From Gammaproteobacteria bacterium (GTDB lineage: Bacteria; Pseudomonadota; Gammaproteobacteria; UBA4575): 64,000 nucleotides of DNA. The notes beneath the pieces were generated by a model. That model did no database searches and was not told the origin of the DNA. It saw only the letters and a list, made by a program, of their open reading frames with translations. The DNA lies in NCBI GenBank assembly GCA_965243395.1, contig CBDEUS010000002.1, positions 107,444-171,443 on the forward strand, read 5' to 3'. The position numbers were made by a program, and so were the translations under genes. Below, piece after piece: positions 34,218 through 52,667 of the stretch (position 1 is the stretch's first letter; each line of letters starts with the position of its first letter).

Positions 34218-34313
34218 GGTACCCCAACCAAGATTCGAACTTGGATCTACCACTAATCTGGTGCGTGAATCACGGGATATAAATCCGCTGCTTTACCGTT
34301 AAGCTATTGGGGC
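34218..34313 (-). tRNA. 96-nt tRNA-like gene with intact acceptor, T and D arms but no canonical anticodon arm
   Basis: acceptor ACCCCAA/TTGGGGC, T-arm CCAAG-ATTCGAA-CTTGG, D-arm GCTT-TACCGTT-AAGC; 61 nt between T and D arms with only a CGTGA-A-TCACG mini-hairpin; best weak fold gives anticodon UAU. Confidence 0.4.
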
Positions 34314-34322
34314 AAAATTTTT

Positions 34323-34396
34323 TGGACACTCCGCTCAGAATTGAACTGAGTCCTCAAGGGTTGCAACCTTGCGTCTTGCCGATCGACCACGGAGTG
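34323..34396 (-). tRNA. tRNA-Cys (GCA)
   Basis: T-arm CTCAG-AATTGAA-CTGAG, anticodon arm CAAGG/GTTGCAA/CCTTG, U73 discriminator. Confidence 0.7.
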
Positions 34397-34472
34397 TTGG
34401 CACATCCGGAAAGATTTGAACTTTCATCTTTGGGTTTGGAGGCCAATGTTCTGCCAATTGAACTACAGATGC
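34397..34472 (-). tRNA. tRNA-Trp (CCA)
   Basis: T-arm GAAAG-ATTTGAA-CTTTC, anticodon loop TTTGGAG (anticodon CCA), D-arm GTTC-TGCCAATT-GAAC. Confidence 0.65.
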
Positions 34473-34474
34473 TC

Positions 34475-34550
34475 TGGCTGGGAGTCCTGGACTCGAACCA
34501 AGATCTCAAGAGTCAAAGTCTTGCGTCTTAACCAGTTAGACGAATTCCCA
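34475..34550 (-). tRNA. tRNA-Gln (UUG)
   Basis: T-arm CCTGG-ACTCGAA-CCAAG, anticodon arm CAAGA/GTCAAAG/TCTTG. Confidence 0.7.
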
Positions 34551-34559
34551 TTTTTGTTT

Positions 34560-34635
34560 TGGCGCGGTTGGAAAGACTCAAACTTTCATCTTCGACTTTC
34601 GTAGAGTCGTGCTTTATCCGATTAAGCTACAACCG
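34560..34635 (-). tRNA. tRNA-Arg (ACG)
   Basis: T-arm GAAAG-ACTCAAA-CTTTC, anticodon arm CGACT/TTCGTAG/AGTCG, acceptor GCGGTTG/CAACCGC. Confidence 0.7.
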
Positions 34636-34644
34636 CAAAAACTT

Positions 34645-34720
34645 TGGTAGCCCGAATCCGATTCGAACGGATAACTTTCGCTTTGTAAGAACGACACTCT
34701 GCCAATTGAGTTATCGGGCT
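34645..34720 (-). tRNA. tRNA-Val (UAC)
   Basis: T-arm ATCCG-ATTCGAA-CGGAT, anticodon loop TTGTAAG, acceptor AGCCCGA/TCGGGCT. Confidence 0.65.
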
Positions 34721-34728
34721 AAAATTTT

Positions 34729-34800
34729 TGGTAGTTACGGTTAGAATCGAACTAACAAGTCCAGGGTTATGAGCCCTAGCCGAAGACCACTTCCGTAACT
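34729..34800 (-). tRNA. tRNA-Met (CAU), initiator-like anticodon stem, shortened D-arm
   Basis: RNA anticodon arm TAGGG-CTCATAA-CCCTG (GGG/CCC stem as in initiators); only 12 nt between anticodon arm and acceptor (4-bp stem, 4-nt loop); total 72 nt. Confidence 0.5.
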
Positions 34801-34808
34801 AAAGTATT

Positions 34809-34882
34809 TGGTGGATCCAGTAGGAGTCGAACCTACCTCTGCGGGTTAAAAGCCCGCTGCACAACCGCTATGCCATAGATCC
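34809..34882 (-). tRNA. tRNA-Lys (UUU)
   Basis: T-arm GTAGG-AGTCGAA-CCTAC, anticodon arm GCGGG/TTAAAAG/CCCGC. Confidence 0.7.
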
Positions 34883-34883
34883 T

Positions 34884-34959
34884 TGGCACGCCTGAAAGGA
34901 GTTGAACCTTTATCTCACTGGTTCGAAGCCAGTGGCTCTTCCAATTAAGCTACAGACGT
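34884..34959 (-). tRNA. tRNA-Arg (UCG)
   Basis: T-arm AAAGG-AGTTGAA-CCTTT, anticodon arm ACTGG/TTCGAAG/CCAGT. Confidence 0.65.
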
Positions 34960-34961
34960 AT

Positions 34962-35052
34962 TGGCGGAGAAGAACAGATTCGAACTGTTGAATGAAAAAT
35001 TTCCATCCCTCCTTTAGCAAAGGAGTGCTTTAAACCACTCAGCCACTTCTCC
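34962..35052 (-). tRNA. tRNA-Ser (GCU), class II
   Basis: 91 nt; T-arm AACAG-ATTCGAA-CTGTT, 19-nt variable arm, anticodon arm CTCCT/TTAGCAA/AGGAG. Confidence 0.7.
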
Positions 35053-35112
35053 AATTTATAATTTGCAGCGCTTCGCGATATTTAATTTGCGAGTAATACC
35101 CACTCGCAAGCG

Positions 35113-35188
35113 TGGGGTGAACTACCGGACTCGAACCGGTATCTACCAGATTCACGTTCTGGGGCTTTGCCATTAAGCTAAGCTCACC
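35113..35188 (-). tRNA. tRNA-His (GUG) with encoded G-1 and C73
   Basis: T-arm ACCGG-ACTCGAA-CCGGT, anticodon arm CCAGA/TTCACGT/TCTGG (anticodon GTG, position 33 = C), C73, extra 5' G at 35188. Confidence 0.65.
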
Positions 35189-35199
35189 ATAATTATTTT

Positions 35200-35291
35200 T
35201 GGCGGAAGGCGGAGGGCACGATCCCCACCAACTAAAAAGCCAGCCACCAGTTTTCAAGACTGGGACACCCCCACTGGGTGAATCACCTTCC
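35200..35291 (-). tRNA. tRNA-Ser (UGA), class II, non-canonical T-loop
   Basis: 92 nt; anticodon arm CCAGT/TTTCAAG/ACTGG; T-loop reads GCACGAT rather than ATTCGAA. Confidence 0.5.
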
Positions 35292-35316
35292 TTATATATG
35301 TAAATTTGGAGCGGAT

Positions 35317-35391
35317 AATCGGATTCGAACCGATATTTATGGTTTGGAAGACCATCACTCTGCCAATTGAGTTATACCCGCAGATTTGGTC
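35317..35391 (-). tRNA. tRNA-Gly (UCC)
   Basis: T-arm ATCGG-ATTCGAA-CCGAT, anticodon arm ATGGT/TTGGAAG/ACCAT. Confidence 0.7.
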
Positions 35392-35396
35392 TGAGT

Positions 35397-35474
35397 GGCT
35401 GGATTCGAACCAACGACCTCTCGCTTCCAAGGCGAGTACTCTGCCCAGGCTGAGCTACACTCAGAGAATTAATT
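35397..35474 (-). tRNA. tRNA-Pro (UGG)
   Basis: T-arm GCTGG-ATTCGAA-CCAAC, anticodon arm CTCGC/TTCCAAG/GCGAG, acceptor CTGAGTG/CACTCAG. Confidence 0.65.
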
Positions 35475-35491
35475 AAATATAAAAAATTATT

Positions 35492-35567
35492 TGGTGCATC
35501 GAGTTGGACTTGAACCAACGACCACACGATTATCGGTCGTGCGCTCTACCAACTGAGCTATCGATGC
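35492..35567 (-). tRNA. tRNA-Ile (GAU)
   Basis: canonical D-arm GCTCTACCAACTGAGC, T-arm GTTGG-ACTTGAA-CCAAC, anticodon arm CACGA/TTATCGG/TCGTG (anticodon GAT, position 33 = C), acceptor GCATCGA/TCGATGC. Confidence 0.7.
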
Positions 35568-35568
35568 T

Positions 35569-35644
35569 TGGTGTTCCTGACCAGAATTGAACTGGCATCT
35601 CGAGTTTGAAAGACTCGTGACCTCACCATTAGTCGACAGGAACT
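35569..35644 (-). tRNA. tRNA-Glu (UUC)
   Basis: anticodon arm CGAGT/TTGAAAG/ACTCG, acceptor GTTCCTG/CAGGAAC. Confidence 0.7.
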
Positions 35645-35657
35645 AATAAAATATTTT

Positions 35658-35733
35658 TGGCGGACCCGATCGGACTCAAACCGACATCCCCTTTATCGAC
35701 AGTAAAGTGCTTTATCAATTAAGCTACGAATCC
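35658..35733 (-). tRNA. tRNA-Asp (GUC)
   Basis: anticodon arm CTTTA/TCGACAG/TAAAG, T-arm ATCGG-ACTCAAA-CCGAC. Confidence 0.65.
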
Positions 35734-36088
35734 AACTTTTGTTTAAAGGTTGAGACTATGCCTTTAAAAATCACTCTTTTGTTGAAGTACCTAACGCATT
35801 GCTGTGCGATAGTTGCCAACGTGTCCACATTACCCTGGTTGCTCCAGCGATTATGTTAGTGATCATGACTGCTTTTTTTAAAGTGTAGCGATTCACTTGT
35901 CGCGTTAATCTATTCAGCTATTCACTTACCGAGAACCTTGCCAGGCTCTAAACGGAGGCTATCCGAACGTGCAATGAAGTAACTAAAGTTCTTTGGCTTG
36001 CGACCGCAGAATCTTCCATGTTCCCAAGTGGGCATGGACTTAAGTCATTTTCAATTAACACCGAGACGCGTCTTTGCGTTTCACCGTA
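35734..36088 (-). other. 355-nt non-coding spacer inside the tRNA array; candidate structured or stable RNA
   Basis: no minus-strand ORF, no recognisable tRNA; short palindromes AGACGCGTCT and TGATCA. Confidence 0.25.
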
Positions 36089-36165
36089 TGGTGATCTATG
36101 TGGGAGTCGAACCCACGACCTATTGATTCTAAGTCAATCGCTCTACCAATCTGAGCTAAAAGATC
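36089..36165 (-). tRNA. class-I (77 nt) tRNA with Leu anticodon UAG (second copy)
   Basis: T-arm GTGGG-AGTCGAA-CCCAC, 5-nt variable loop, anticodon arm ATTGA/TTCTAAG/TCAAT (anticodon TAG), canonical D-arm, A73. Confidence 0.6.
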
Positions 36166-36605
36166 AGGTACTACTAAGACGTGCACGTCTCAGTTGCTTC
36201 ATTATTTTTTGAATAACGAAATACAACACGCCTTTTGTCTTTCCTCTGCCGAGTACTTAACCGAATATTCGGATCATGGCTTCCACCCATTTCCCTAATA
36301 ATCTGCACAACCGCACTTGTCTGCAAAACTCGTACTATGTTGTACTACCTGTTATCTCTCGTAGTACGCAATCTAGTATCACGGGTTACAGCACTACCTG
36401 TATCTTTCTCACGACCCGTATTCCCAAGTAAACCTGGTACGTCAATCGTGGTACTTCCGCGTATTGCTTGGCTACTATTGCCGATTGAATTACGACAACA
36501 TGGAGACCAGGCTTGCTTGGTTTGACCTACTTTGAAAAGTGGGCGAAATACCGTAGTCGTATTCCTTTCCTATCGTTGCCGATAGTTATCGTGCCAAGCC
36601 ACATA
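36166..36605 (-). other. 440-nt non-coding spacer inside the tRNA array; candidate ncRNA
   Basis: no minus-strand ORF; 14-bp perfect palindrome AGACGTGCACGTCT at 36176-36189; + strand ORFs here are antisense and implausible. Confidence 0.25.
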
Positions 36606-36681
36606 TTTGGTGGAGGATCACGGATTTGAACCGTGCGCCTTCTGTTTGCAATACAGACGCTCTGCCAACTGAGCTAATCCC
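36606..36681 (-). tRNA. tRNA-Ala (UGC) with G3:U70
   Basis: anticodon arm TCTGT/TTGCAAT/ACAGA; acceptor strands GGGGGAT/ATCCTCC give the G3:U70 Ala identity pair. Confidence 0.75.
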
Positions 36682-36690
36682 CCAAACTTA

Positions 36691-36765
36691 TTTGGCTGCG
36701 ACGGTTGGACTCGAACCAACATTGCTTCGCTTAACAGACGAATGTTCTACCATTGAACTACATCG
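36691..36765 (-). tRNA. tRNA-Asn (GUU)
   Basis: anticodon arm TTCGC/TTAACAG/ACGAA, T-arm GTTGG-ACTCGAA-CCAAC. Confidence 0.65.
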
Positions 36766-36775
36766 CAATTATATT

Positions 36776-36852
36776 TGGTGCATCAGGATGGATTCGAACC
36801 ACCATCGCGTCGGGCTTCAACCGACCGCTCTACCCATTGGAGCTACCGATGC
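36776..36852 (-). tRNA. tRNA-Phe (GAA); sequence differs from the att-site Phe fragments
   Basis: anticodon arm GTCGG/GCTTCAA/CCGAC, D-arm GCTCTACCCATTGGAGC; its T-arm and acceptor differ from the 14005/47417 repeats. Confidence 0.7.
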
Positions 36853-36860
36853 AAAAATAA

Positions 36861-36945
36861 TTGGTGGAGAGAGATGGATTCGAACCACCACGCTAATAAT
36901 TAGCACTGGGTTACAGCCAGCGTGTCTCACCAATGACTGTCTCTC
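36861..36945 (-). tRNA. tRNA-Tyr (GUA), class II
   Basis: 85 nt; 15-nt variable hairpin ACGCTAATAATTAGC; anticodon arm ACTGG/GTTACAG/CCAGC. Confidence 0.65.
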
Positions 36946-36959
36946 CTAAAGTTAAAACT

Positions 36960-37035
36960 GGAGCTGGTGATAGGCGTCGAACCTACAACCTACTGCTTAC
37001 AAAGCAGTTGCTCTGCCATTTGAGCTACACCAGCA
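36960..37035 (-). tRNA. tRNA-Thr (UGU)
   Basis: anticodon arm ACTGC/TTACAAA/GCAGT, acceptor GCTGGTG/CACCAGC. Confidence 0.7.
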
Positions 37036-38199: not shown

Positions 38200-39915
38200 C
38201 TATGGTATGACGGGTACTCGCATATGCGTAGGCGTTTCTCCTCCGAAACAAATTTTTTGCATAGCACTTATTGCCTCAGTCTCATAAGGAATGGAATCTC
38301 CAGTGTTTGGGTTTCGATCAAATCTTGGGAAACTGCTGCTTGTGATATGGACCCTAATTTGATGTCCCTTTTTGAAAACATAACTTGTAGGCCACAGTTC
38401 AATCTCAATCTTTTTCGCATTTTTACAGCTTTGTCCTTCTAATTGATACTCCGCTCTTTTTATGCCATCAGTAACGTTATAGGAACTTCCATCTTCAAAT
38501 ACATCCGTAATTCTAACTACAAAATCTGTATTACTTACATTTGTTTGCACATAAAGAAATGCAGATACAGGACCAGTTATTTCAGTATCTTCATTCAGCA
38601 CTTCGCTTGTATAAACAAGTACATCTTTTCTCGATTCGATTTCATTTTGCAGTGCGATCCCAGCCCGTGGACCTAAAACTACTCCACCATTTGATGGAAC
38701 TGGAATATTTGGATCATAGACATAATGATCAAACCCAAATTTTTCAGGATTAGCCCAAGTTAATTTTCCCGAATGTGCTGAAGTACCCGCAGTTCCATCA
38801 CTGGAAATGTATAAATTCTTAAATTGAGTCCTCGCTAATGGCCATTCGTTTTCATATCTCCATTCATTCTTACCAAGTACAAATAATTTAATTTTTCCCA
38901 AGCCATTTTTCTCATTGTTTTGTTCTAATAATTTTTTGTCAAACCAATTTAAGGCTTCTTTGATACTTGTCTCTCTATATGTTGGTACTTTATTTAAACT
39001 AGGTATTTTTACTTCTCTTGCATGTGACCACGGACCGACTATTATTTCTCCCTGTTTTAATTGCACGAAATCATTAATTTGAGAGGGTAAAAATGGGTCA
39101 AACCAGCCAGCAAGCATTTGCACGGGGGCACTTATTGTTTTTGCTCTATCGACACCATCAATATTAATCCAGTAGTTATTTTTAGTATTGTTTAGTACCC
39201 AGTCGTTAAAAAACTGTATGTCTTTATCAGCGCGCTCGTCTGCTTCAATTAATGGGAACCCATCAAATCCTTTTTCCATATCCTTAATTTTAGGTTCGAT
39301 GTCTTTTTTGCCACCACTTTGAAGTGACCATCTAAGTGCGCTCTCAAGAGAGAAAGCACCGCCTGGGTAAAACATGTCATAGAAGCTAGTACTAACAATA
39401 TGCAAGTGGTAAGCACTGATACTTGGATTAATTTGATCAGAGATGGCTAGCTGTGTGTATCCAAAAGCAGAACCACCCCACATGCCAAGTTGTCCATTGA
39501 ACCATGGTTGCTCGTTCAACCATTGCAATGTTTCGATTCCATCACTTCTTTCATTTATTAATGGATAGTAATCACCTTGAGATTTATAACGCCCACGTGT
39601 TCCTTGAATAACAACATTGTATCCACGAGATGCCCAGTATCTTGCGACTGATTCTGATTTCAAACGATTCGAGAATGTATTTGTAAAAGGTATTCTTACT
39701 AAAATCGTAGGTACCGGTTTATTAACAATTGGCCTATAGACATCAGAGACAAGAGTTATATTGTCTGATGTAATTAAACTTTTATCTTCATGTTTTACTA
39801 CTTTATATTCTCTTGATCGAACTCCTTCATTCGGAAGAAATAATTCTTGTGTAATGGTTTGACAACCATATAACAGAAAAAATAACAAAAAAGAAAGATA
39901 TCTAAAAAGTTTCAT
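38200..39915 (-). CDS. CocE/NonD-family hydrolase (S15 X-Pro dipeptidyl-peptidase fold), secreted
   Basis: 571 aa, signal peptide, catalytic-Ser context GGSAFGY, alpha/beta-hydrolase plus C-terminal beta-sandwich. Confidence 0.7.
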   Translation of the reverse strand: MKLFRYLSFLLFFLLYGCQTITQELFLPNEGVRSREYKVVKHEDKSLITSDNITLVSDVYRPIVNKPVPTILVRIPFTNTFSNRLKSESVARYWASRGYNVVIQGTRGRYKSQGDYYPLINERSDGIETLQWLNEQPWFNGQLGMWGGSAFGYTQLAISDQINPSISAYHLHIVSTSFYDMFYPGGAFSLESALRWSLQSGGKKDIEPKIKDMEKGFDGFPLIEADERADKDIQFFNDWVLNNTKNNYWINIDGVDRAKTISAPVQMLAGWFDPFLPSQINDFVQLKQGEIIVGPWSHAREVKIPSLNKVPTYRETSIKEALNWFDKKLLEQNNEKNGLGKIKLFVLGKNEWRYENEWPLARTQFKNLYISSDGTAGTSAHSGKLTWANPEKFGFDHYVYDPNIPVPSNGGVVLGPRAGIALQNEIESRKDVLVYTSEVLNEDTEITGPVSAFLYVQTNVSNTDFVVRITDVFEDGSSYNVTDGIKRAEYQLEGQSCKNAKKIEIELWPTSYVFKKGHQIRVHITSSSFPRFDRNPNTGDSIPYETEAISAMQKICFGGETPTHMRVPVIP

Positions 39916-40658
39916 CTTGGTTTTTTTCGCTTCACACCTAGCAATTTAGCAAACCCCCATTTTCTGAAACCGAGCATCATTGCAACACCATTACGCTTAT
40001 TAGCAGGTATTTTCAAATCTTCGCTAATTAACTGGTCAAAGTATCTTGCAACTTCATCAAGCTTCTCATGCATTTTATGGATTGCCCCGTCGGTAAGCAT
40101 TCCGCCAACGAAATGGAGTTTTTCATCTTGATGCAAAAATTTAGTTTTTAGAAACTCTGTTAACACTTCTTGATTGAAAAACTTTTGTACAGGCCCATTG
40201 TCAGACCATTTAAAATTTCGAGCCGTTAATACTCGAATTCGATTGAATGGTTGTAGCTCTATAAGTCCAATTTTTTCTAATTTTATAAAATGCTTGTTAA
40301 GCTCGGCTTCAGATATATCAAACGTATCTTTTATTTCATATTCTTTCCAATGATTGAGAACAAGGTAAGTGACGAGTAGTAAACGATGATTATTCACAAA
40401 CTCTTTTTCTTGCTCTAGCGTAAGTTGTGTCACCAAAGGTTGTTGTTGCTCAGAATCTAAAACAATTTCTTTGATATCGATTCCAAGCCAACTGCACAAA
40501 GTTTCAAGTCGATTTAAAGATAGTCCTCCCGTGGAAAAGAGTCTTCTGATACTGGGCTCACTGAGCTGTAATACTTTTGCTGCATCGCTGTATGTTTTCC
40601 CCTGCTCCCTTATCCGTTTCTTTAGAGCAACATGAATTGATTTGCTTTGAATTGCCAT
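39912..40658 (-). CDS. HTH-domain transcriptional regulator
   Basis: 248 aa; N-terminal HTH (KTYSDAAKVLQLSEPSIRRLFSTG); 4-nt overlap with the hydrolase; divergent from the lipid operon. Confidence 0.5.
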   Translation of the reverse strand: MAIQSKSIHVALKKRIREQGKTYSDAAKVLQLSEPSIRRLFSTGGLSLNRLETLCSWLGIDIKEIVLDSEQQQPLVTQLTLEQEKEFVNNHRLLLVTYLVLNHWKEYEIKDTFDISEAELNKHFIKLEKIGLIELQPFNRIRVLTARNFKWSDNGPVQKFFNQEVLTEFLKTKFLHQDEKLHFVGGMLTDGAIHKMHEKLDEVARYFDQLISEDLKIPANKRNGVAMMLGFRKWGFAKLLGVKRKKPR

Positions 40659-40768
40659 AATGTATTATATATTGATACATATTGACTATATTTTGCAATT
40701 ATTTAGATAAATATTGCAAATATTGAGACAAAACGGAAATATACTCTCAAATACAAGGGAGTATCAGC

Positions 40769-41500
40769 GTGAGTCCATTTGTCATAATTGTCGCTATAGG
40801 GATCAGCATGATCATAATTGAAAGATTGTGGCCAAACGCTGTGTTACCCAATACTCCACGTTGGTGGGCAAGAGCTTTTACATTTAATTTTGCCCAAGCG
40901 TTAATCAGTTTTATTGCGGCGGTTACTTGGGACAAGTGGTTTCCATACTTCAATTTATTTGATATCGACACACTTCCTAACGCTGTTCAAATATTTATTG
41001 GCTACATCACAATTACATTTATCTATTATTGGTGGCATCGTGCACGACATGAAATTCCTTTGCTGTGGAATGTGTTTCACCAAATTCATCATAGTCCAGC
41101 AAGACTAGAGGTAATCACAAGCTTTTATAAACATCCGCTAGAAATATTCGTAAACGGAGTACTATCAAGTTGGTTGTTACATAGCTTATTAGGTGTAACA
41201 CCCACCGTTGCTGCCTCTGTTGTGATGATCACCGGTCTTGCTGAATTCTTTTATCACTGGAATATACGCACACCTTACTGGTTAGGATACTTGTTTCAGC
41301 GCCCAGAAAGTCATCGCGTGCATCATCAGCATGGGCTTCATCATTTTAATTATTCGGATTTACCGGTTTGGGACATGTTATTTGGAACATTCAATAATCC
41401 TAAATCAACACCCATGCAAACAGGATTTGAAATTAAAGATGAATTACAGCTTAAAACCATGTTGCTTGGAAAGCCTGTTGTTAATAGGAAAACATCATGA
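40769..41500 (+). CDS. fatty-acid hydroxylase / sterol desaturase family membrane protein
   Basis: His boxes HRARHEIPLLWNVFHQIHHS and HRVHHQHGLHHFN. Confidence 0.7.
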   Translation: MSPFVIIVAIGISMIIIERLWPNAVLPNTPRWWARAFTFNFAQALISFIAAVTWDKWFPYFNLFDIDTLPNAVQIFIGYITITFIYYWWHRARHEIPLLWNVFHQIHHSPARLEVITSFYKHPLEIFVNGVLSSWLLHSLLGVTPTVAASVVMITGLAEFFYHWNIRTPYWLGYLFQRPESHRVHHQHGLHHFNYSDLPVWDMLFGTFNNPKSTPMQTGFEIKDELQLKTMLLGKPVVNRKTS

Positions 41501-41994
41501 AGCATAAAATAATTTTTTTATTCTTAATATTCATAGGCAGTGTACGCGCAGTTGCAGATATTGGTGGATATTCAAACGTATCTTCGTTTTTCTCATTATT
41601 TAATGCATCACCCGCTATGAAAGTTTTCACGGCACACAAAAATTATGAGACATTTTCACCAATTTTTATGCTTGATTTTCATGGAAACAATGGTGCTTCC
41701 ACATCTGTTGAATTAACACCTGAACTCTATAGAAAATTAGAAGGCCCTTACAATCGAAGAAACATATTTGGCGCTGCTATTTCCTATGGTCCTGTTCTCG
41801 TAAGCAATCAAAATACAGCAGATTTATTTTACAGTGTTGCTAGGTATAGTTTTTGTAATCCAGGTAAGCTGATTAAAGAATTAGAAATTGATGTGCCGGA
41901 TGATGTAAACAAAGTGACGGTTCGTTATCTTCATCAAGAAAATGTAAATACTGATTATCCTGTTCAATTGGAGGTGGACTGTGAAAAATTCTAA
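41497..41994 (+). CDS. hypothetical secreted protein
   Basis: 165 aa with signal peptide; 4-nt overlap with the upstream gene. Confidence 0.45.
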   Translation: MKHKIIFLFLIFIGSVRAVADIGGYSNVSSFFSLFNASPAMKVFTAHKNYETFSPIFMLDFHGNNGASTSVELTPELYRKLEGPYNRRNIFGAAISYGPVLVSNQNTADLFYSVARYSFCNPGKLIKELEIDVPDDVNKVTVRYLHQENVNTDYPVQLEVDCEKF

Positions 41995-43219
41995 CTGGAC
42001 TGCTGGTATGTTCGCAATCTTCAGAATTTTACTAGGATCGTATTTAGTAGTGCACTTTCTACATCTTGTACCATGGGGCGCAGAAGTTTTTGGTAACAAT
42101 GGAACGCTACATAGTTCTTCAGTCAGTCCACTCATGGGTATCATACCGAACCCACTAAACACATTAGGTGATAGTTATTTTATAAGTGTATTACTTGTGA
42201 TCGGTGCAATAAGTGGAATACTACTTGTATTAGGCAAGTGGGACCGCATAGGTGCTGCTATTTCATTGGTTGTATTAGCATGGCTCTATCAACGAAATCC
42301 TCTGATTGCGAATCCTTCGTTACCATTACTTGGTTGGATGTTGCTTGCTTATTGCTTTATACCTTTAGGAGGAATAGGCCGGGCATTTATAAATAACCGA
42401 GATACGACAAATTTTAACTGGCGATTACCAGGATCTGTATGGTGGGCAGCATGGATCGTATTAGGTGTAGCTTATACATATAGTGGCTATACAAAGTTAT
42501 TAAGTCCATCATGGGTGGACGGCTCTGCAATAAGTATTGTTCTAGAAAATCCTCTAGCAAGAGACTATTTTTTAAATAGTTTCCTTTTATCTATAGATCC
42601 ATGGTTTTTAAAAGGCCTTACGTGGGCAATTACATGGATTGAATTATTATTTCTACCACTAATTGCATTTAAGTCAACGCGATTTATTGTGTGGGCGTTG
42701 ATGTTGATTGTGCAGTTTGGCTTTCTTTTCTTGCTTAACTTTGCAGATTTAACGTTTCCAATGTTGCTTATCCATTTATTGCTATTCGACCCTCAATGGA
42801 TCAAACCAAAGCCAAATAAAAAAGAAACGATTTTCTATGATGGAAATTGTGCATTGTGTCATTCTGTTATACGCCTTGCATTATCTGAAATGCCAAGAGG
42901 ACGATACACATTTTCACCACTTCAAGGTAAATTGTTTGAAAATGCAATTCCAGAAAGTGCACGTTCACAATTACCCGATTCCTTTCTCGTTCTTACAAGT
43001 GACAATAAAGTGAAAGTCGAAGGTGATGCAGTTTTGCATGTGCTTCGTAGCTTTGGAGGACTGTGGTACTTATTAGGAACAGCTTTGAGTATTTTACCCA
43101 AAGTGATAATAAATTTCGGATATCGGGTTGTAGCAATAGTAAGATACCGATTATTTGGAACAAAAAGTAATTTGTGCCCGATAGTACCAACTGAATTCCA
43201 AAAATTATTCGTTAGTTAA
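41981..43219 (+). CDS. HTTM-like membrane domain fused to DCC thiol-disulfide oxidoreductase domain
   Basis: N-terminal ~290-aa polytopic HTTM-like domain; C-terminal FYDGNCALCH... matches the DUF393/DCC motif. Confidence 0.6.
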   Translation: MKNSNWTAGMFAIFRILLGSYLVVHFLHLVPWGAEVFGNNGTLHSSSVSPLMGIIPNPLNTLGDSYFISVLLVIGAISGILLVLGKWDRIGAAISLVVLAWLYQRNPLIANPSLPLLGWMLLAYCFIPLGGIGRAFINNRDTTNFNWRLPGSVWWAAWIVLGVAYTYSGYTKLLSPSWVDGSAISIVLENPLARDYFLNSFLLSIDPWFLKGLTWAITWIELLFLPLIAFKSTRFIVWALMLIVQFGFLFLLNFADLTFPMLLIHLLLFDPQWIKPKPNKKETIFYDGNCALCHSVIRLALSEMPRGRYTFSPLQGKLFENAIPESARSQLPDSFLVLTSDNKVKVEGDAVLHVLRSFGGLWYLLGTALSILPKVIINFGYRVVAIVRYRLFGTKSNLCPIVPTEFQKLFVS

Positions 43220-43223
43220 AACT

Positions 43224-43658
43224 ATGAGCAAGAGTAGTAAATATGCAATTGTTCTTTGGGTATTGCTTGGACTTTTCTGTTTTCGAGTACTTGCACAACT
43301 ATTTCAATTTATTTTTGATAGCCCATTTTTGCCACCGTTTGATGCTTGGTACAGCGGAGCGTTGGCCTATCCTTATTTGCTGATTTCTCAGGTGCTGATT
43401 ATCAGTATTTATTCATTTATCTGCATTCAATTTACCAAAGGTGTCTTTACGCCATCTAATCGGGTAGGAGTATTTTTCTTAGCAATTGGGGGCGTTTATG
43501 TGTGCTTTATGCTAGGAAGATTGCTTATTGGTCAGCTATTTACTTCTTCTGCTTGGTTTCACGCTTACATTCCCATTTTCTTTCATTTTATTCTTGCGCT
43601 ATTCCTAATTGTAGTTGGAATATTTCATATCAGAAATAAGAATATAGATGACTACTGA
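43224..43658 (+). CDS. hypothetical membrane protein
   Basis: 144 aa, 4 TMs. Confidence 0.45.
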   Translation: MSKSSKYAIVLWVLLGLFCFRVLAQLFQFIFDSPFLPPFDAWYSGALAYPYLLISQVLIISIYSFICIQFTKGVFTPSNRVGVFFLAIGGVYVCFMLGRLLIGQLFTSSAWFHAYIPIFFHFILALFLIVVGIFHIRNKNIDDY

Positions 43659-46236
43659 AGCAGTAAATAGATGGTTACCATGGGTTGCATACCCGCTTGG
43701 TATTGGAATAGGGATCTATCTGCATTTAACTATGCTGTCTTGGGGTATTGATATTCAAATTAGTACTTATGTACCAGTATTCCTTGCAGCTGGAATAATT
43801 ACATTGCTTGAGATTTATTTTCCATATTTACAACAATGGAAACCCAATACTCAAGATATAAAAAATGATGCAATGTACATGCTTGTGGTACAAACGATCT
43901 TGCCAAAAGTATTGGCATTTCTTACTGCATTAGTACTGTTACGTTATTCAAACGAAAGTGGATTATTTAATTTAAACCTTTGGCCTCATCACTTACCGGT
44001 TTGGCTTCAGGCAGTGCTAATGATTTTAGTGGCTGATTTTCTCCGTTACTGGCTTCATGTTGCTTCTCATAAAAATCGTTTCTTATGGAGATTTCATGCA
44101 GTTCATCATTCTCCTAAAAAATTGTATTGGATAAACACCGGAAGATTTCATCCCATTGAAGAAGTTGCTCAGTTTTTACTCGATGCTTTACCTTTCATTC
44201 TATTGGGTGTCAGTGAATATGTTTTGGCATTTTATTTCGTTTTCTATGCTATCAATGGTTTTTTTCAGCACTCCAATATAAGACTTAAGTTTGGTGTATT
44301 GAATTACGTAATTAGCACAGCAGAACTACATCGTTGGCATCATTCACGTCTTGAGAATGAATCTAATTCTAACTATGGAAATAACACAATTATCTGGGAT
44401 CTAGTCTTTTGTACAAGATACCTGCCTAGTGATAGAAGCATTGAAAAAATAGGGCTCATTAATTCTAAATATCCCATAACGTTTTTAGATCAACTTAAAA
44501 CACCATTTGTTGGAGGACTGGATAAAAAGTATTTGCCATTGCCTAGCATTAAACAGCTAATTGTGAACGGTTTAATTAAGCTTCAAATGAACATTACCAA
44601 ACATACTATTTGGAAACCTATGCTAAAAGCTGCCATAGACCCTATGCATACGCAATTTAGTTTCCTAAAAAAACTCATTGAAGAAAATGCTGATACTGAA
44701 TTCGGCAAAGAACATCATTTTAAAAAAATTAACTCTTATGAAGATTACTGCAGGCTTGTTCCTATTCAGTCATACGAAAGCTTAAGTCCATATTTTACAA
44801 AACAAGATAAGTTAAAAGAATTTTCGATAAACAGCCAACAACCGTTTATGTATGCCGTTACAAGCGGTACTACGGGTGCATCTAAACTTATACCGATTCT
44901 TGATAAGACAGTTAAACAAAATAAAAAACACCAGAAGCTTTTTACCTATATTCAATACAGAGACAATCCGGGAACATTCAGCGGTAAAATGCTTGGAATT
45001 GTAAGCCCTGCGATTGAAGGATATACAGAGCCAGGTACGCCATTTGGCTCAGTATCTGGTGTTCTATATAAAAACATGCCTTCGATCATGAAATCGAAAT
45101 ATGTGCTTCCATTTGAAATTTTTTCAATTGAAAACTATGACCTTAAATATCAGCTAATTCTTAGGATTGCTCTATCACACAAAGATATCACCTACTTTGT
45201 TACAGCAAATCCATCAACTTTACTATTACTCAACAAAATACTAAACGAGGATATTTCTGTATTAGCAAATGAAATTGAGCAAGGAGATTTTAGAGAATAC
45301 GAAACTTTACCAAAGAGCATCCAAACATTTATTACAAAGAATTTGAAGCCAAATCCTGATCGGGCAAATGAACTACGTCAGCTGATATTGAATAAAAAAG
45401 AAATTACTTTTGCGGATGTGTGGCCACAATTACAAACTGTTGTTACTTGGACGGGTGGTAGTTGTGGTATCGCAATAGATGCGGTTAAGCAAAAACTTCC
45501 AGCCATTACAAAAGTAATCGAGCTAGGTTATATGGCTACTGAAGTCAGAGGGACTATAACAATTGATGCAGAAAAAAATCTTGGTTTACCTACAATTCAA
45601 GATAATTTCTTTGAATTTGTTGAAAGAGATGATTGGGAGAATGAAAAACATAACTTCATAACAATTGATCAACTATCTAAAAACAAAGAATACTATATTT
45701 TCATAACAACAAACTCTGGTCTTTATCGATATTTCATCAACGACATAGTAAGAGTAAATGGAAAAATTGAAAATACACCTACTATTCAATTCATACAAAA
45801 AGGAAAAGGTGTAACTAGTATTACTGGCGAAAAATTATATGAATGTCAGGTTATTGAATCGATGAAACTAACGGAAAAAGAATTTAATTTCTCAAACATT
45901 TTTTACATGATGCTTGCTGATAATGTACATTCAAACTACGAATTATTCATTGAGACACCTGAGAATTATGACCCTCCTTTGGAAGCAATAAGAGACTATA
46001 TTGAGACTTGTCTATGCAAATTAAATATTGAATACCAAAGTAAGCTTGCAAGCGGGAGATTAAAACCACTTTCTTTGCATCATATAAAAAGTGGGACAAG
46101 AGAAAGTTTTAAGAAATTTTATATTGAAAAAGGTCAAAAAGAGAGTCAATTTAAAATCGTGGCACTTCAATATAAGGATGAACTAGAGTTTGATTTTGAG
46201 AATTATATTATAGAATTATTTGAAAAGGCGAGTTAA
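43648..46236 (+). CDS. fusion protein: N-terminal fatty-acid hydroxylase domain + C-terminal GH3-family acyl-acid amido synthetase domain
   Basis: residues ~1-260: TMs and His boxes HVASHKNRFLWRFHAVHHS / HRWHHS; residues ~300-862: GH3 nucleotide-binding motif YAVTSGTTGASKLIP. Confidence 0.65.
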   Translation: MTTEAVNRWLPWVAYPLGIGIGIYLHLTMLSWGIDIQISTYVPVFLAAGIITLLEIYFPYLQQWKPNTQDIKNDAMYMLVVQTILPKVLAFLTALVLLRYSNESGLFNLNLWPHHLPVWLQAVLMILVADFLRYWLHVASHKNRFLWRFHAVHHSPKKLYWINTGRFHPIEEVAQFLLDALPFILLGVSEYVLAFYFVFYAINGFFQHSNIRLKFGVLNYVISTAELHRWHHSRLENESNSNYGNNTIIWDLVFCTRYLPSDRSIEKIGLINSKYPITFLDQLKTPFVGGLDKKYLPLPSIKQLIVNGLIKLQMNITKHTIWKPMLKAAIDPMHTQFSFLKKLIEENADTEFGKEHHFKKINSYEDYCRLVPIQSYESLSPYFTKQDKLKEFSINSQQPFMYAVTSGTTGASKLIPILDKTVKQNKKHQKLFTYIQYRDNPGTFSGKMLGIVSPAIEGYTEPGTPFGSVSGVLYKNMPSIMKSKYVLPFEIFSIENYDLKYQLILRIALSHKDITYFVTANPSTLLLLNKILNEDISVLANEIEQGDFREYETLPKSIQTFITKNLKPNPDRANELRQLILNKKEITFADVWPQLQTVVTWTGGSCGIAIDAVKQKLPAITKVIELGYMATEVRGTITIDAEKNLGLPTIQDNFFEFVERDDWENEKHNFITIDQLSKNKEYYIFITTNSGLYRYFINDIVRVNGKIENTPTIQFIQKGKGVTSITGEKLYECQVIESMKLTEKEFNFSNIFYMMLADNVHSNYELFIETPENYDPPLEAIRDYIETCLCKLNIEYQSKLASGRLKPLSLHHIKSGTRESFKKFYIEKGQKESQFKIVALQYKDELEFDFENYIIELFEKAS

Positions 46237-46244
46237 CCGCAGTC

Positions 46245-47369
46245 ATGCTGATTGAAAACGCCAATCTAAAAAAAATAGATATCCCCTTTGTAGTCTCTTT
46301 TAAACACTCCTCTGCCGAACGATCTAAAACGGAGAGTGTTCTCGTAGAGATGATTTCCAAAAGCAGTATATCTGGTTATGGGGAATCATGTCCAAGAGAA
46401 TATGTAACATCAGAAAATATTGAGAGTGTAAAAGTATTTTTTAATAAAAATATTCTCTCTTTCAAAGATTATGTAAATGACATAGATAGCCTAAAAATTT
46501 GGTTGGGAAACAATATTGAAAGTATTGATCTTAATCCTGCAGCAATGTGTGCTATTGAAATGGCCTTTTTAGATATGTTTTCAAAAAATAAGGGTATATC
46601 AATTGAGAATTCAATAGGCATTCCTGAACTGCAAGGTCAATTTAAATATACAGCAGTAATTGGAGATAGTAGTTCAGAAATATTTTATAGCATTCTTAAA
46701 AAGTATATTGATATGGGTTTTGATGATTACAAAATTAAGCTCTCTGGTATCTTAGAGAAGGATCAAGAAAAATGTCATATATTAAATACTAAACTAACAT
46801 TCCCTTTTCGCTTACGCTTCGATGCTAATAATTTATGGAATAATCATGAAACTGCGATCAGTTACTTATCTAAACTAGATATCGATTATTTTGCAATTGA
46901 AGAACCCCTTACACCAAATGATTATCTAGGTTTAGCCAAACTCTCAAGTGAGCTAAATAAACAAATCATATTAGATGAGAGTTTTTTGAACCTTGGTCAA
47001 TTCGATAACCTCTTTGAAAATCCTGAAATGTGGATAATTAATCTTCGAGTATCAAAAATGGGCGGTTTATTAAGATCAATGAAGATTATTGATATAGCAA
47101 AAAATCATGGGATTAAAATAATTATCGGTGCTCAGGTCGGTGAAACAAGCCTTCTTACAAGAGCAGCTCTAACTATTGCAAATTATGCAAGAGATATTCT
47201 TATTGCCCAAGAAGGTGCGTTTGGAAATTTATTACTGAAATCAGATTTATGTGATTCACCCATTATGTTTGGTAAATCAGGCATCCTTGATTCTTCCAAA
47301 TTACAAACAACCAGCTCTGGCTTTGGGTTTGAACTTAAAAACTACGAACACTTCGAGCAGCTAAGTTAG
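46245..47369 (+). CDS. enolase-superfamily enzyme (MR/MLE subgroup; OSBS / N-acylamino-acid racemase / dipeptide-epimerase-like)
   Basis: catalytic pattern KIKLSG, DANNLW, IEEP, ILDES, NLRVSKMGG. Confidence 0.65.
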   Translation: MLIENANLKKIDIPFVVSFKHSSAERSKTESVLVEMISKSSISGYGESCPREYVTSENIESVKVFFNKNILSFKDYVNDIDSLKIWLGNNIESIDLNPAAMCAIEMAFLDMFSKNKGISIENSIGIPELQGQFKYTAVIGDSSSEIFYSILKKYIDMGFDDYKIKLSGILEKDQEKCHILNTKLTFPFRLRFDANNLWNNHETAISYLSKLDIDYFAIEEPLTPNDYLGLAKLSSELNKQIILDESFLNLGQFDNLFENPEMWIINLRVSKMGGLLRSMKIIDIAKNHGIKIIIGAQVGETSLLTRAALTIANYARDILIAQEGAFGNLLLKSDLCDSPIMFGKSGILDSSKLQTTSSGFGFELKNYEHFEQLS

Positions 47370-47585: not shown

Positions 47586-48881
47586 ATGAAAAAAGTGCAA
47601 GGGTGGTGCAAAGTTCGCTACGAGGATTTTTTGGAGGATGACCATATGAGTAAACATCAAATCCACTTAACCAAACACGATGTACAAAACTATCCACGAC
47701 CCGAACAAGGAATGCTTCGATTGTGGGACAGCGAGATTGAAGGTTTGTATGTTTTAATTCCAGCTGCAGGAAAACGAACCGCATACTTTCGTTATCGCAT
47801 TCAAGGACGCCAACGTGATTTTCGCATTGGTCGCATCGATCGTCTGAGCTTGAAGGCAATACGTGATGAAGCCAAAAAGTGCGCCGCGAGAGTCGAGCTT
47901 GGCCAAGACATACAAGAAGCCAGAAATGCAGCTAAGCTTGCGCTACGTGAAGCCAAAAATAATCAAGGTGCGCCCAATCTCCAATTGTTTGGAGACTTCT
48001 ATCAACACTATTACATCGATTATGCAAAAGCGACACTGAAAGATTATCGAAAACGTCTACGAGCCATCGAATTTAACTTTTCACAATGGTTTGATAAACG
48101 TTTAGATGAAATCAATGTGCCGTTAGTGGCTAGTTGGCGTAATCACAAACTGGCAACACCTGTTACAGTAGGCAAAGGCGACAATCAAAAACAACGTGAA
48201 CGTACTACCGGCGCGATCAATCGACCGGTTGGCTATTTGAAAGCGCTACTCTCCGTTGCTTATGAAGAAGCGGAGCTTTTGGATCATCACCCTCTTGATC
48301 GACTCAAACCTTTGAAAGAACCTCGACACAAGCGTGATCGGTTCTTAACCAATGAAGAATTTAAACGTTTACGTAATAGTTTGCGCGGACGTGATGATTA
48401 TCTACCGGTTTTAATAGAACTGGGTATTAACACAGGTTTGCGTTTGAATGAGATGCTCACCTTAGAATGGGGATCAGTTGATTTACGTAATCAGACGCTG
48501 ACGGTGGAAAGTCATTACGCCAAAAGCAAACGCAAGCGAACCGTTCCACTCAATAATTCGATTACCGCAGTCATACGTGATTGGAAACTTCGTACTCAAC
48601 GCTTTGGTCCATGGGTATTCACCAATCCGAATACCGATAATCACTACGTCTCCATTTACCGCGCATGGAATACAGCGATGCAAGAAGCCGGCATTGAAAA
48701 CTTCGTGCGTCATGATTTACGCCGTACCTTTGGCAGTTGGCTCGCCGAACGCGGTGAGAGCATTTATGTGATTAAGAATTTACTCGGACACTCCAGTGTG
48801 AAAGTCACCGAAGAAAGTTATGCGTATCTACAAGACAAATCTCAACGCGATGCGGTAGAACGCCTTGAAGCGATCGCATAG
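47586..48881 (+). CDS. int: tyrosine recombinase, P4-type integrase
   Basis: 431 aa; C-terminal catalytic box HDLRRTFGSWLAERG...LLGHSSVKVTEESYAY (R, H-x-x-R, Y). Confidence 0.85.
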   Translation: MKKVQGWCKVRYEDFLEDDHMSKHQIHLTKHDVQNYPRPEQGMLRLWDSEIEGLYVLIPAAGKRTAYFRYRIQGRQRDFRIGRIDRLSLKAIRDEAKKCAARVELGQDIQEARNAAKLALREAKNNQGAPNLQLFGDFYQHYYIDYAKATLKDYRKRLRAIEFNFSQWFDKRLDEINVPLVASWRNHKLATPVTVGKGDNQKQRERTTGAINRPVGYLKALLSVAYEEAELLDHHPLDRLKPLKEPRHKRDRFLTNEEFKRLRNSLRGRDDYLPVLIELGINTGLRLNEMLTLEWGSVDLRNQTLTVESHYAKSKRKRTVPLNNSITAVIRDWKLRTQRFGPWVFTNPNTDNHYVSIYRAWNTAMQEAGIENFVRHDLRRTFGSWLAERGESIYVIKNLLGHSSVKVTEESYAYLQDKSQRDAVERLEAIA

Positions 48882-50396: not shown

Positions 50397-51155
50397 TTAT
50401 TCAGAAAAAAATTCTTTTATAATATATTCACTACCTGAAATTATATTTTCATATAAAGCAAATGAAAAACTTAATAAACTTAATAATAATAATATCAAAA
50501 TCACTATCCTAACTGGCTTTCGTATAGTCGAGTACCTCCCAAATACCTCCCAAAATAATTCACGCTCAACCTCTTTAGTCTGTTCTATATCAAGCTCATT
50601 ATCTGAATTTAATATAGGCATGCCTAAAGAATAAATTTTACTTTTGTACTCAAAATATAGTACTGATTGATTTTCTTGAACATTAACTAATGGTATATCA
50701 GAAGCCTTAATGCCAAAATTTGATAATTCAGACTTACTTAGCTCTTTTATATATCCTTTTGTTTTTATTCTTTCAAAAAATTTTGGGAGCTCACTTTTTG
50801 CTTTCACAATATCTAATGAAATCCATGCAATCCAGCGTGGAGCATGTTTGTGAGACTTATAATCTGAAAATGATGAGTATGTCTTGATAAATTTTGGGCA
50901 AAATATCATATAAAGTATATATGCAATGACAAAAAACAAGGATGCAGCCCAAAGATATTGCCATGTAAATGGAAGTTGAAAATTTATAGTTAACGAAGAA
51001 TTTTCATTAACTTTGAATATAACTTGCTCGGGAACATTTTCTAATATTTTTGCAATTGCAGGTACAATTGCAAACCAAGCCACAAGATAGCGAAATACAG
51101 TTATATTAAATTTTTCGTTATACCATTGCCAATGAGAATATACATTATTCAACAT
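50397..51155 (-). CDS. hypothetical membrane protein (partner of radical-SAM gene)
   Basis: 252 aa; TMs at N-terminus, middle and C-terminus; start overlaps the radical-SAM stop by 7 nt. Confidence 0.45.
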   Translation of the reverse strand: MLNNVYSHWQWYNEKFNITVFRYLVAWFAIVPAIAKILENVPEQVIFKVNENSSLTINFQLPFTWQYLWAASLFFVIAYILYMIFCPKFIKTYSSFSDYKSHKHAPRWIAWISLDIVKAKSELPKFFERIKTKGYIKELSKSELSNFGIKASDIPLVNVQENQSVLYFEYKSKIYSLGMPILNSDNELDIEQTKEVERELFWEVFGRYSTIRKPVRIVILILLLLSLLSFSFALYENIISGSEYIIKEFFSE

Positions 51156-52375
51156 TTCACTTTATCCCACTTATAAATTTTCCTTCCGGATTTATCTTTA
51201 TCACCATTAAAGTATACTCCATAAAAAGTTGTTGGGTTAAATGGTGAATCCAGATTTTGCCAACGATGAAGCAAATAATCCTCAACAGTATTATGTGCAT
51301 TATTTCTTTTTGGTAATCGAGAATTTGAATTTAAGTGTTTATCAATTGATCCAGCTGGTTTCCAATATTTTTGGATTCGATCGTATGTAATATTTTCAAA
51401 TCCAGATTTTTTAACCGCATGACTTATTTGATACTTATTCCAATTTTCAAATCCATCAAATTGATCTACTCCACTACAACAACAGTTTGTGTCTGACATA
51501 TATTGAAGCTCATTATCAGCAGCACCAAATGTTATCCCAAATTTATTAGAAGCTGATTTAACTTCTTTTAGTCGTTCAATCTTATATTCAGGAGGTAGCA
51601 CATATTCTCTACCATCACGATTGGCTTTAGATAATTTATAATGATTATTTATATCAAAATCTAACTTAAGCGATAGGCGTCGCCATAACTCATTATTTTT
51701 TTCAATTGGTAGTTTCAAGTGTTCTAAACCGAGATGCTTTATCCCACTTGCAGCAATTGCGCTTACAAACTTGCTTGGATCTTCACTTACATTTGGTATA
51801 TATGGTTGCCATCTAACAGTTGTATTAATACCATTTCGCGATAGCTTACTTATTGCTTTTAATTTTTCTGAGGATGTAGGCGCATGTGGTTCAGAATAAT
51901 TAGAAATCTCATTTATTGCACTAGAGAAAGAATACTGAACAACTAAATGTGGATTAGATTTTAGAACATCTAAATATTCTTTTTCAGCAACTAGCGGTGA
52001 TTTTGTACTTATTACTACAGGATAATTTATCTCACATAAATATTTTAAAATCGCTAATGACACCCCACTTTTTTTCTCTGCAGGTTGAAATGGATCACTC
52101 ATACCTCCGAAATGTAGCGGAAGTCGATGTCTTATAGCTTCTGAAACAATACCTGTGGCCGTATCCGGATGTTTTATCGCAAATTTAAATCTTTTAATAA
52201 TTTTTTCAGGATCTGCAATTTTTAATTTTTTAGATGAAGTATTTCCCCCTCGAAGTCTGGCAAAACAGTAGCTACAGTTAAAATTACATCCCGAATATGT
52301 ATCAAGCCTAAAAGGTAAACCACAAAAACTGAATTGGCTAGTGATTCCAATTGGCGTCGTATATTCTATTGTCAT
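51149..52375 (-). CDS. radical SAM protein, spore-photoproduct-lyase-like (COG1533-type)
   Basis: CNFNCSYC = Cx3Cx2C near N-terminus; 408 aa. Confidence 0.65.
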   Translation of the reverse strand: MTIEYTTPIGITSQFSFCGLPFRLDTYSGCNFNCSYCFARLRGGNTSSKKLKIADPEKIIKRFKFAIKHPDTATGIVSEAIRHRLPLHFGGMSDPFQPAEKKSGVSLAILKYLCEINYPVVISTKSPLVAEKEYLDVLKSNPHLVVQYSFSSAINEISNYSEPHAPTSSEKLKAISKLSRNGINTTVRWQPYIPNVSEDPSKFVSAIAASGIKHLGLEHLKLPIEKNNELWRRLSLKLDFDINNHYKLSKANRDGREYVLPPEYKIERLKEVKSASNKFGITFGAADNELQYMSDTNCCCSGVDQFDGFENWNKYQISHAVKKSGFENITYDRIQKYWKPAGSIDKHLNSNSRLPKRNNAHNTVEDYLLHRWQNLDSPFNPTTFYGVYFNGDKDKSGRKIYKWDKVKC

Positions 52376-52592: not shown

Positions 52593-52667
52593 TGGAGGCC
52601 AGGGTCGGAGTTGAACCGACGTATTACACCTTGCTGGGGGTATGCATCACCACTCTGCCACCTGGCC
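52593..52667 (-). pseudogene. degenerate tRNA-like gene (Cys-like: anticodon GCA, U73) with broken anticodon stem and A33
   Basis: acceptor GGCCAGG/CCTGGCC, T-arm GTCGG-AGTTGAA-CCGAC, D-arm GCA-TCACCACTC-TGC; no 5-bp anticodon stem; loop CAGCAAG lacks U33; overlaps the ImmA stop by 21 nt. Confidence 0.4.

Follow-up and report, generated by a model that had tools for sequence, protein, structure and literature searches.

A hydroxylase-GH3 fusion with an enolase-superfamily partner: a candidate aminolipid cassette within a two-part gammaproteobacterial operon

Background

GH3 enzymes of plants use jasmonate, auxins and benzoates as substrates (PMC12493201). GH3-dependent synthesis of aminolipids was shown only in 2025 and in a single planctomycete, Singulisphaera acidiphila, in which experiments showed OlsH to be a fatty acid:ornithine N-acyl synthetase that requires ATP and Mg and works together with OlsI, an alpha/beta-hydrolase O-acyltransferase; according to the same authors, thousands of bacterial GH3 homologues have unknown substrates (PMC12493201). 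A further enzyme of aminolipid metabolism, OlsE, adds a hydroxyl group to the head group of ornithine lipid, at C4 (PMC12971839). Here we describe an operon in a stretch of 64,000 nucleotides (nt) from a bacterium of the gammaproteobacterial lineage UBA4575 (assembly GCA_965243395.1, contig CBDEUS010000002.1, positions 107,444 to 171,443; hereafter the window), in which a GH3 synthetase is fused to an OlsE-like hydroxylase domain and followed by a gene for an enolase-superfamily (MR_MLE) enzyme.

The literature found on GH3 proteins in connection with a hydroxylase or an enolase consisted of the OlsH paper (PMC12493201) and a 2026 review, neither of which mentions the fusion or the enolase partner. 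An earlier note, made from the letters of the window alone, had described this gene architecture as not known to its author from characterised systems; this stands for the cassette described below, but not for GH3-based aminolipid synthesis in general, for which OlsH is a precedent.

Results and discussion

Domain architecture of the hydroxylase-GH3 fusion protein

The operon consists of six genes on the plus strand, which fall into two groups of three, cassette A and cassette B:

40769-41500, plus strand: FAH1, free-standing membrane di-iron hydroxylase, 243 amino acids (aa), first gene of cassette A
41497-41994, plus strand: p165, 165 aa, second gene of cassette A
41981-43219, plus strand: HTTM-DCC protein, 412 aa, third gene of cassette A
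43224-43658, plus strand: p144, 144 aa, first gene of cassette B
43648-46236, plus strand: hydroxylase-GH3 fusion, 862 aa, second gene of cassette B
46245-47369, plus strand: MR_MLE enolase-superfamily gene, 374 aa, third gene of cassette B

We read this operon as two autonomous cassettes that share one divergent regulator, with cassette B as the core that makes a modified fatty-acyl amino-acid lipid, and assign to this reading a probability of roughly 0.45. It builds on the domains and catalytic motifs identified, on the order and co-conservation of the genes and on the pattern of fused and split genes. The open reading frames were found at the coordinates stated, and the earlier note had left out the two small genes in the span, p165 and p144. 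Its assignments of two FA_hydroxylase domains and of GH3, enolase and DCC domains all proved to lie above the Pfam gathering cut-offs, including the GH3 and enolase labels on which its proposal depended.

In the fusion protein, an FA_hydroxylase match (5.4e-30, residues 123-256) is followed by matches to the N, M and C parts of GH3 (3.6e-56, 1.1e-18 and 6.1e-13, residues 328-840). The OlsE-like di-iron domain extends over approximately residues 1-290 and contains the three His boxes H137xxxH141, H150xxHH154 and H228xxHH232, while the nucleotide motifs of GH3 are present as TSGTTG..K413, GSVSG471 and YRYxxND699. All these motifs and boxes were invariant in 22 homologues of 45-83% identity, and in a structure comparison the GH3 part matched plant GH3.6 structures over the full length.

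The only curated NCBIfam relatives of the fusion protein were OlsE (NF052566) and OlsH (NF052613). The OlsE model gave 184.3 bits (E 3e-54, model positions 20-284 of 293) and the OlsH model 111.1 bits in two partial stretches, both missing the equivalog cut-offs of 475 and 620, respectively, by a wide margin, and membership of the fusion protein in either family was rejected. With OlsH the protein shares the GH3 fold and the ATP-dependent amido synthetase motifs, and an alpha/beta-hydrolase gene is found nearby as in the OlsH/OlsI pathway. However, OlsH is a soluble, stand-alone protein of 526 aa, whereas GH3 is here fused to or adjoins a membrane hydroxylase; OlsI and OlsG are lacking, and the invariable enolase-superfamily partner is absent from the OlsHI operon. 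Similarly, the hydroxylase part resembles OlsE of Rhizobium tropici and Agrobacterium in belonging to the di-iron FA_hydroxylase superfamily, in its three His boxes and in an alignment along nearly the whole model, but OlsE stands alone and acts on finished ornithine lipid, whereas the domain is here fused or coupled to a synthetase. The statement of the earlier note that GH3 joins an acyl acid to an amino acid has thus a bacterial precedent, since OlsH makes N-acyl-ornithine from free fatty acid (PMC12493201), and the hydroxylase fused to it is OlsE-like.

The first protein of cassette B, p144, has four predicted transmembrane helices and the conserved motifs FLPPF..W, GG.YF and FHLVLA; searches of Pfam returned no usable match to it, even at E<=10.

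Distribution and gene content of cassette B

Cassette B was surveyed in contigs of one genome per GTDB species, and 81 loci were scanned with the proteins of the window. The family of the fusion protein comprises at least 752 protein clusters, and a pattern search with 600 matches yielded relatives of this protein in at least 560 species representatives. These carriers are spread over more than 10 phyla, with examples in Gamma-, Beta- and Alphaproteobacteria, Dehalococcoidia, Acidimicrobiia, Acidobacteriota, Nitrospirota, Bdellovibrionota, Poribacteria, Bacteroidota and Balneolota. Among cultured bacteria, the cassette is carried by Bdellovibrio sp. HCB185ZH and HCB337, Gracilimonas and Kaarinaea lacus. 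Homologues of the window proteins were distributed over the 81 loci as follows:

MR_MLE: 80 of 81 loci, almost always directly downstream
p144: 53 of 81 loci, mostly directly upstream
CocE/NonD hydrolase: 13 of 81 loci, mostly adjoining and on the same strand
Helix-turn-helix (HTH) regulator: 3 of 81 loci, divergent
FAH1, p165 and HTTM-DCC: 1 of 81 loci (L002), arranged as in the window

The hydroxylase and GH3 parts were fused in 30 loci and encoded by separate adjoining genes in 51, and because of this Rosetta-stone pattern we regard the two activities as functionally linked. Together with the near-universal enolase partner, the fused and split arrangements argue for cassette B being a three-enzyme pathway that works on one intermediate. 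Read-through at in-frame stops was considered for nine split loci and dropped, as the frame distribution of 9/15/27 does not favour the same frame.

When the neighbours of 85 loci were clustered, no further conserved partner emerged: there was no conserved acyltransferase or methyltransferase, no conserved transporter beyond generic ABC components and no conserved partner of the OlsI type, i.e. an alpha/beta-hydrolase O-acyltransferase. The CocE/NonD hydrolase is an accessory partner of cassette B; it was present in only about 16% of the loci, and in the window its gene lies on the strand opposite to the operon. In Gracilimonas, genes for a P450 and an acyltransferase-like protein are located upstream of the cassette instead.

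The enolase-superfamily protein

The third protein of cassette B matched MR_MLE_C with 8.2e-27 and has the complete set of catalytic and metal-binding residues of the MLE subgroup, K163-x-K165, D193, E219, D244 and K271, which align to those of 3jva and were conserved to at least 95% across 78 family members. Its best relatives in the PDB were the dipeptide epimerases 3jva (86 bits), 3r0k and 1jpm and the NSAR/OSBS enzymes 1wuf, 2p88 and 1sja, so that the view of the earlier note, which had placed it nearest to enzymes acting on dipeptides or N-acyl amino acids, was confirmed. It shares the KxK, D, E, D, K set with NSAR/OSBS and L-Ala-D/L-Glu-type dipeptide epimerases, but no PDB match exceeded 86 bits, and the protein belongs to an orthologous family of its own, marked by the neighbouring GH3 gene. 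That this family is distinct follows from E-values of 1e-80 to 1e-110 between members from different phyla, compared with 2e-23 for the best PDB protein.

Among NCBIfam models the low-GC OSBS model TIGR01928 scored best, with 122.2 bits against a cut-off of 200.65. None of the characterised isofunctional families that were compared (OSBS, NSAR, AEE and DgcA) reached its cut-off, the other models remaining further below theirs than TIGR01928, and membership in OSBS, NSAR or AEE was rejected because the equivalog cut-offs were missed widely. A long-chain N-acyl substrate is not described for the enolase superfamily in the literature found.

Racemases, dehydratases and cycloisomerases of the MLE subgroup use the same catalytic residues. 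The MR_MLE protein might thus act as a dehydratase or cyclising enzyme, abstracting the alpha-proton and then eliminating the hydroxyl group that the di-iron domain had placed on the head group, in the manner of OSBS or cis-3-hydroxy-L-proline dehydratase, to yield an N-acyl dehydro- or cyclic amino acid. The preference for the OSBS model would fit such chemistry, as would a score of 61.6 bits for the cis-3-hydroxy-L-proline dehydratase model and the coupling of a hydroxylase to the enolase gene in 78 of the 81 loci. However, the position hydroxylated by OlsE, C4, is gamma and not beta to the carboxylate, which does not favour elimination; among proteins of solved structure, epimerases and racemases come closest, and three loci combine GH3 and MR_MLE without a hydroxylase. 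We therefore judge elimination or cyclisation to be decidedly unlikely. Epimerisation, in contrast, is most simply what alpha-proton abstraction by an MLE-type enzyme would be predicted to lead to.

Cassette A is an autonomous unit joined to cassette B in few genomes

Cassette A was surveyed in 80 metagenomic loci and in three genome-scale contigs (L086-L088). It is widely distributed (L086-L168 and the window), mainly in soil metagenomes, and the HTTM-DCC proteins constitute a large family of their own with 899 matches. Among the metagenomic loci, p165 adjoins HTTM-DCC in 76, FAH1 is found upstream of both in 63, most of the others being truncated contigs, and a divergent regulator of the window family adjoins cassette A alone in 16. 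Neither GH3 nor MR_MLE genes were detected beside cassette A, in 0 of the 80 metagenomic loci and likewise in none of the three genome-scale contigs.

Among the loci examined, cassettes A and B were joined only in the window, in L002 and in L085. The nearest relative, L002, is a gammaproteobacterial metagenome-assembled genome with 87% identity and the same order of both cassettes as in the window; in L085, the fusion protein is 58% and the HTTM-DCC protein 81% identical to that of the window. L082, which is 83% identical, has the S15 hydrolase, regulator, p144, fusion and MR_MLE genes, yet lacks all three genes of cassette A. In L002, the regulator gene (6271-7015) and the HTTM-DCC gene (8306-9569) are each split into two overlapping open reading frames, which could reflect either long-read indel errors or pseudogenisation of cassette A.

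The earlier note had proposed that all these genes serve one dedicated pathway, whose one product would be an N-acyl (D-)amino-acid lipid hydroxylated several times. The six plus-strand genes indeed lie close together, either overlapping or separated by no more than 8 nt, the A-plus-B order recurs in L002 and L085, members of the same regulator family accompany A alone as well as B alone (the latter in L082, L015 and L075), and L036 and L038, both of the Poribacteria type, have a second free hydroxylase gene after MR_MLE. Against these observations stand the many loci in which cassette A is found without GH3 or MR_MLE and the occurrence of cassette B without A in 79 of the 81 scanned loci and in L082-L084; each cassette thus works without the other. 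In our view a single pathway comprising all six genes is distinctly unlikely, and this claim of the note did not hold. The gene neighbourhood is accordingly conserved for the hydroxylase/GH3 and MR_MLE genes, but not for cassette A with them: in this lineage, specifically, two autonomous cassettes have come to stand side by side in one operon. The common regulator family hints at related physiology of A and B and not at obligate cooperation.

Proteins of cassette A

FAH1 matched FA_hydroxylase with 7.7e-27 and carries the His boxes H90xxxH94, H104xxHH108 and H182xxHH186; the OlsE model scored 57.1 bits on it, against the equivalog cut-off of 475. The small protein p165 is predicted to be secreted; its N-terminus forms a signal or anchor helix, and its GPYNRRN and Cys motifs are invariant. 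The Pfam searches gave no usable match for this protein, even at E<=10, and its AlphaFold model (predicted local distance difference test, pLDDT, 83.2) had no fold match in the PDB at E<=0.001.

The C-terminal part of the HTTM-DCC protein matched DCC1-like (PF04134) at residues 284-393 (7.9e-16, 59.7 bits, cut-off 27.8), with the CxxC motif C290ALC293, which was invariant in 21 homologues. The HTTM label of the earlier note fared less simply: the PF05090 model did not match the window protein itself, even at E<=10, but it matched 5 of 21 family members (best 6.6e-7), and the 15 top Foldseek matches of the AlphaFold model (pLDDT 83.9) in the PDB were all human GGCX, the vitamin K-dependent gamma-glutamyl carboxylase (E 2.6e-6, probability 1.0, about 280 aligned columns, 17-18% identity). 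Because of the homologues that match PF05090 and of the structural match, the assignment of approximately residues 1-270 as a GGCX-like membrane domain of predicted HTTM fold holds.

The protein thus resembles GGCX in its HTTM membrane fold and DCC1/YuxK in its DCC1-like domain with CxxC, but differs from GGCX by the low identity and by the absence of the lumenal domain; the fusion of HTTM to DCC and its constant association with a di-iron hydroxylase and p165 are without a characterised counterpart. By analogy, the joining of a CxxC domain to one that resembles vitamin K carboxylase is reminiscent of the redox cycle of GGCX and VKOR. In L088, a second HTTM-DCC paralogue and two large proteins with thioredoxin/AhpC-TSA domains flank the cassette A locus (814-2007, 2928-4184 and 9013-10254), and these neighbours hint at a thiol-redox context for cassette A.

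A proposed pathway for cassette B

Every substrate, product and reaction step in what follows is something that we infer from the genes. The cytoplasmic GH3 domain would use ATP to adenylate a free fatty acid and would pass the acyl group on to an amino acid, at its alpha-amino group, giving an N-acyl amino acid (a lyso-aminolipid), as OlsH does with ornithine. The membrane di-iron domain tethered to GH3 would hydroxylate this N-acyl amino-acid lipid. The translationally coupled MR_MLE enzyme would then bind the free alpha-carboxylate via Mg2+ and abstract the alpha-proton with its two lysines, and in this way would convert the head-group amino acid from the L to the D epimer, a reaction with precedents in N-acyl-amino-acid racemases and dipeptide epimerases. 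Trimming, transfer or turnover of the product may be the task of the lipoprotein CocE/NonD hydrolase. Cassette A would be a separate membrane oxygenase/redox unit, recruited into the operon only in a small gammaproteobacterial lineage, and may either introduce additional changes into the lipid made by cassette B or answer to a signal common to both. Altogether, cassette B plausibly works like a GH3-based aminolipid pathway to which a head-group epimerase has been added.

Several points weigh against this proposal. The identity of the substrate is not transferable from OlsH and OlsE, because the scores of 111 versus 620 and 184 versus 475 bits are too far from the cut-offs, and a two-chain membrane aminolipid is not implied, since no O-acyltransferase of the OlsI or OlsA type is conserved near the cassette. 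Racemisation is not distinguished from elimination, as the MLE subgroup includes dehydratases and cycloisomerases and the best model is OSBS, at 122 bits. In three Bdellovibrionota-type loci, GH3 and MR_MLE occur without any hydroxylase. The presence of the cassette in the monoderm lineages Dehalococcoidia and Acidimicrobiia means that a role in the outer membrane is not general, p144 and p165 have no assignable function, and the acyl substrate could be a non-lipid.

In an operon of Geobacillus, a succinyl transferase, NSAR and a desuccinylase together form a route of acylation, racemisation and deacylation. Cassette B could follow a similar route, with GH3 acylating and CocE/NonD deacylating, and would then serve interconversion or salvage of D- and L-amino acids or the detoxification of free fatty acids. 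The similarity of MR_MLE to NSAR-type racemases (1wuf, 2p88 and 1sja) and the recurrence of the hydrolase in 13 of the 81 loci besides the window are in line with this. However, the hydrolase is absent from about 84% of the loci, the one in the window is a predicted lipoprotein and would reside in another compartment than the cytoplasmic GH3 and MR_MLE proteins, and neither the GH3-fused membrane hydroxylase nor the conserved membrane protein p144 would have a role; we consider this route very unlikely.

Conjugation of an amino acid with a non-lipid carboxylic acid of aromatic, isoprenoid or quinone origin, giving a diffusible signal or secondary metabolite by MenC/MenE-like chemistry, would agree with the substrates of plant GH3 enzymes (PMC12493201), with the MenC-type OSBS model as best curated match of MR_MLE and with the vitamin-K-carboxylase-like domain in the neighbouring cassette of the window, but is hard to credit in view of the specifically OlsE-like partner hydroxylase, a lipid head-group type, of neighbour clusters without conserved genes for aromatic-acid or quinone biosynthesis, and of the absence of the HTTM cassette from nearly all cassette B loci.

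The proposal made above for cassette B may also be extended further. In this bolder form, hydroxylated N-acyl-D-amino-acid lipids would be made by cassette B in all its many carriers, through a pathway that has so far gone unrecognised, and its enolase-superfamily enzyme would be the first known lipid head-group epimerase; in the present lineage the GGCX-like oxygenase with its CxxC recycling domain would process the product, as a prokaryotic analogue of the GGCX/VKOR cycle. We regard this extension in its entirety as unlikely.

Regulatory region and flanking genes

On the minus strand, two genes precede the operon, and the region between the divergent genes is short:

38200-39915, minus strand: CocE/NonD (S15) alpha/beta-hydrolase (TIGR00976, 340.7 bits; Peptidase_S15, 1.1e-43; PepX_C, 4.2e-37)
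39912-40658, minus strand: Cro/C1-type HTH regulator, divergent to the operon (HTH_26, 3.8e-05)
40659-40768, no strand assigned: predicted divergent promoter/operator region, 110 nt between the regulator and FAH1

The divergent HTH regulator that the earlier note had described is thus present. The hydrolase has a lipoprotein signal with an LYGC lipobox, and its gene overlaps that of the regulator by 4 nt. The junctions between the six plus-strand genes are, in order, -4, -14, +4, -11 and +8 nt, and the scan for terminators found terminator-like sites at chance level, with no convincing one inside the operon. From these tight junctions and the missing internal terminator, a single transcript of all six genes is the simplest reading, and the junctions of -11 and +8 nt between p144, fusion and MR_MLE suggest co-translation.

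Inside the divergent region, a perfect 8-nt inverted repeat, TTTGCAAT/ATTGCAAA, is located at 40692-40699 and 40713-40720, and ATATTG motifs are repeated between 40659 and 40768. The GTG start codon of FAH1 at 40769 is preceded by the ribosome-binding site GGGAG. The inverted repeat and the ATATTG motifs probably mark a promoter/operator; a promoter scan was uninformative, with 18 promoter-like sites compared with 32 expected.

A P4-type tyrosine integrase gene (Arm-DNA-bind_3 and Phage_integrase; 47586-48881, plus strand) starts 216 nt 3' of the operon and has no adjoining tRNA gene, and in L082 a relaxase gene is found within 9 kb. The cassette may be situated at the edge of a mobile element.

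Other features of the window

An array of about 4 kb (32897-37034, minus strand) contains 25 tRNA genes, a nearly full decoding set, and a gene for an RtcB-family RNA ligase (29474-30670) lies just upstream of it. A full-model Rfam match to GOLLD, a large structured RNA whose function is not known (RF02032; 35747-36234, minus strand; 153.5 bits, gathering score 150, E 4.7e-41), sits inside the tRNA array, and tRNA-Leu(tag) at 36089-36165 lies within this match. A GOLLD copy beside RtcB, in a genome that resembles those of gammaproteobacteria and has about 36% GC, may deserve a study of its own. For a tRNA-like gene at 52593-52667 (minus strand; Rfam tRNA 45.9 bits), ARAGORN predicted the 4-base anticodon cagc; a PA0069-like radical SAM gene (51149-52375) adjoins it.

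Conclusions

We conclude that cassette B is an uncharacterised variant of GH3-dependent aminolipid synthesis, for which the product and its stereochemistry are inferred only. It defines a sharply delimited and testable GH3 sub-family, in which the synthetase is welded to an OlsE-like hydroxylase and an enolase-superfamily enzyme is almost always encoded next to it. Cassette A is interesting in its own right, since it contains a bacterial relative of vitamin K carboxylase that is still uncharacterised. If the proposed pathway is true, cassette B would produce bacterial lipoamino acids of a new class, perhaps with D configuration, would add a new substrate class to the enolase superfamily and would give a function to genes of marine, soil and sponge-associated bacteria that are now annotated only as 'GH3 auxin-responsive promoter family protein'.

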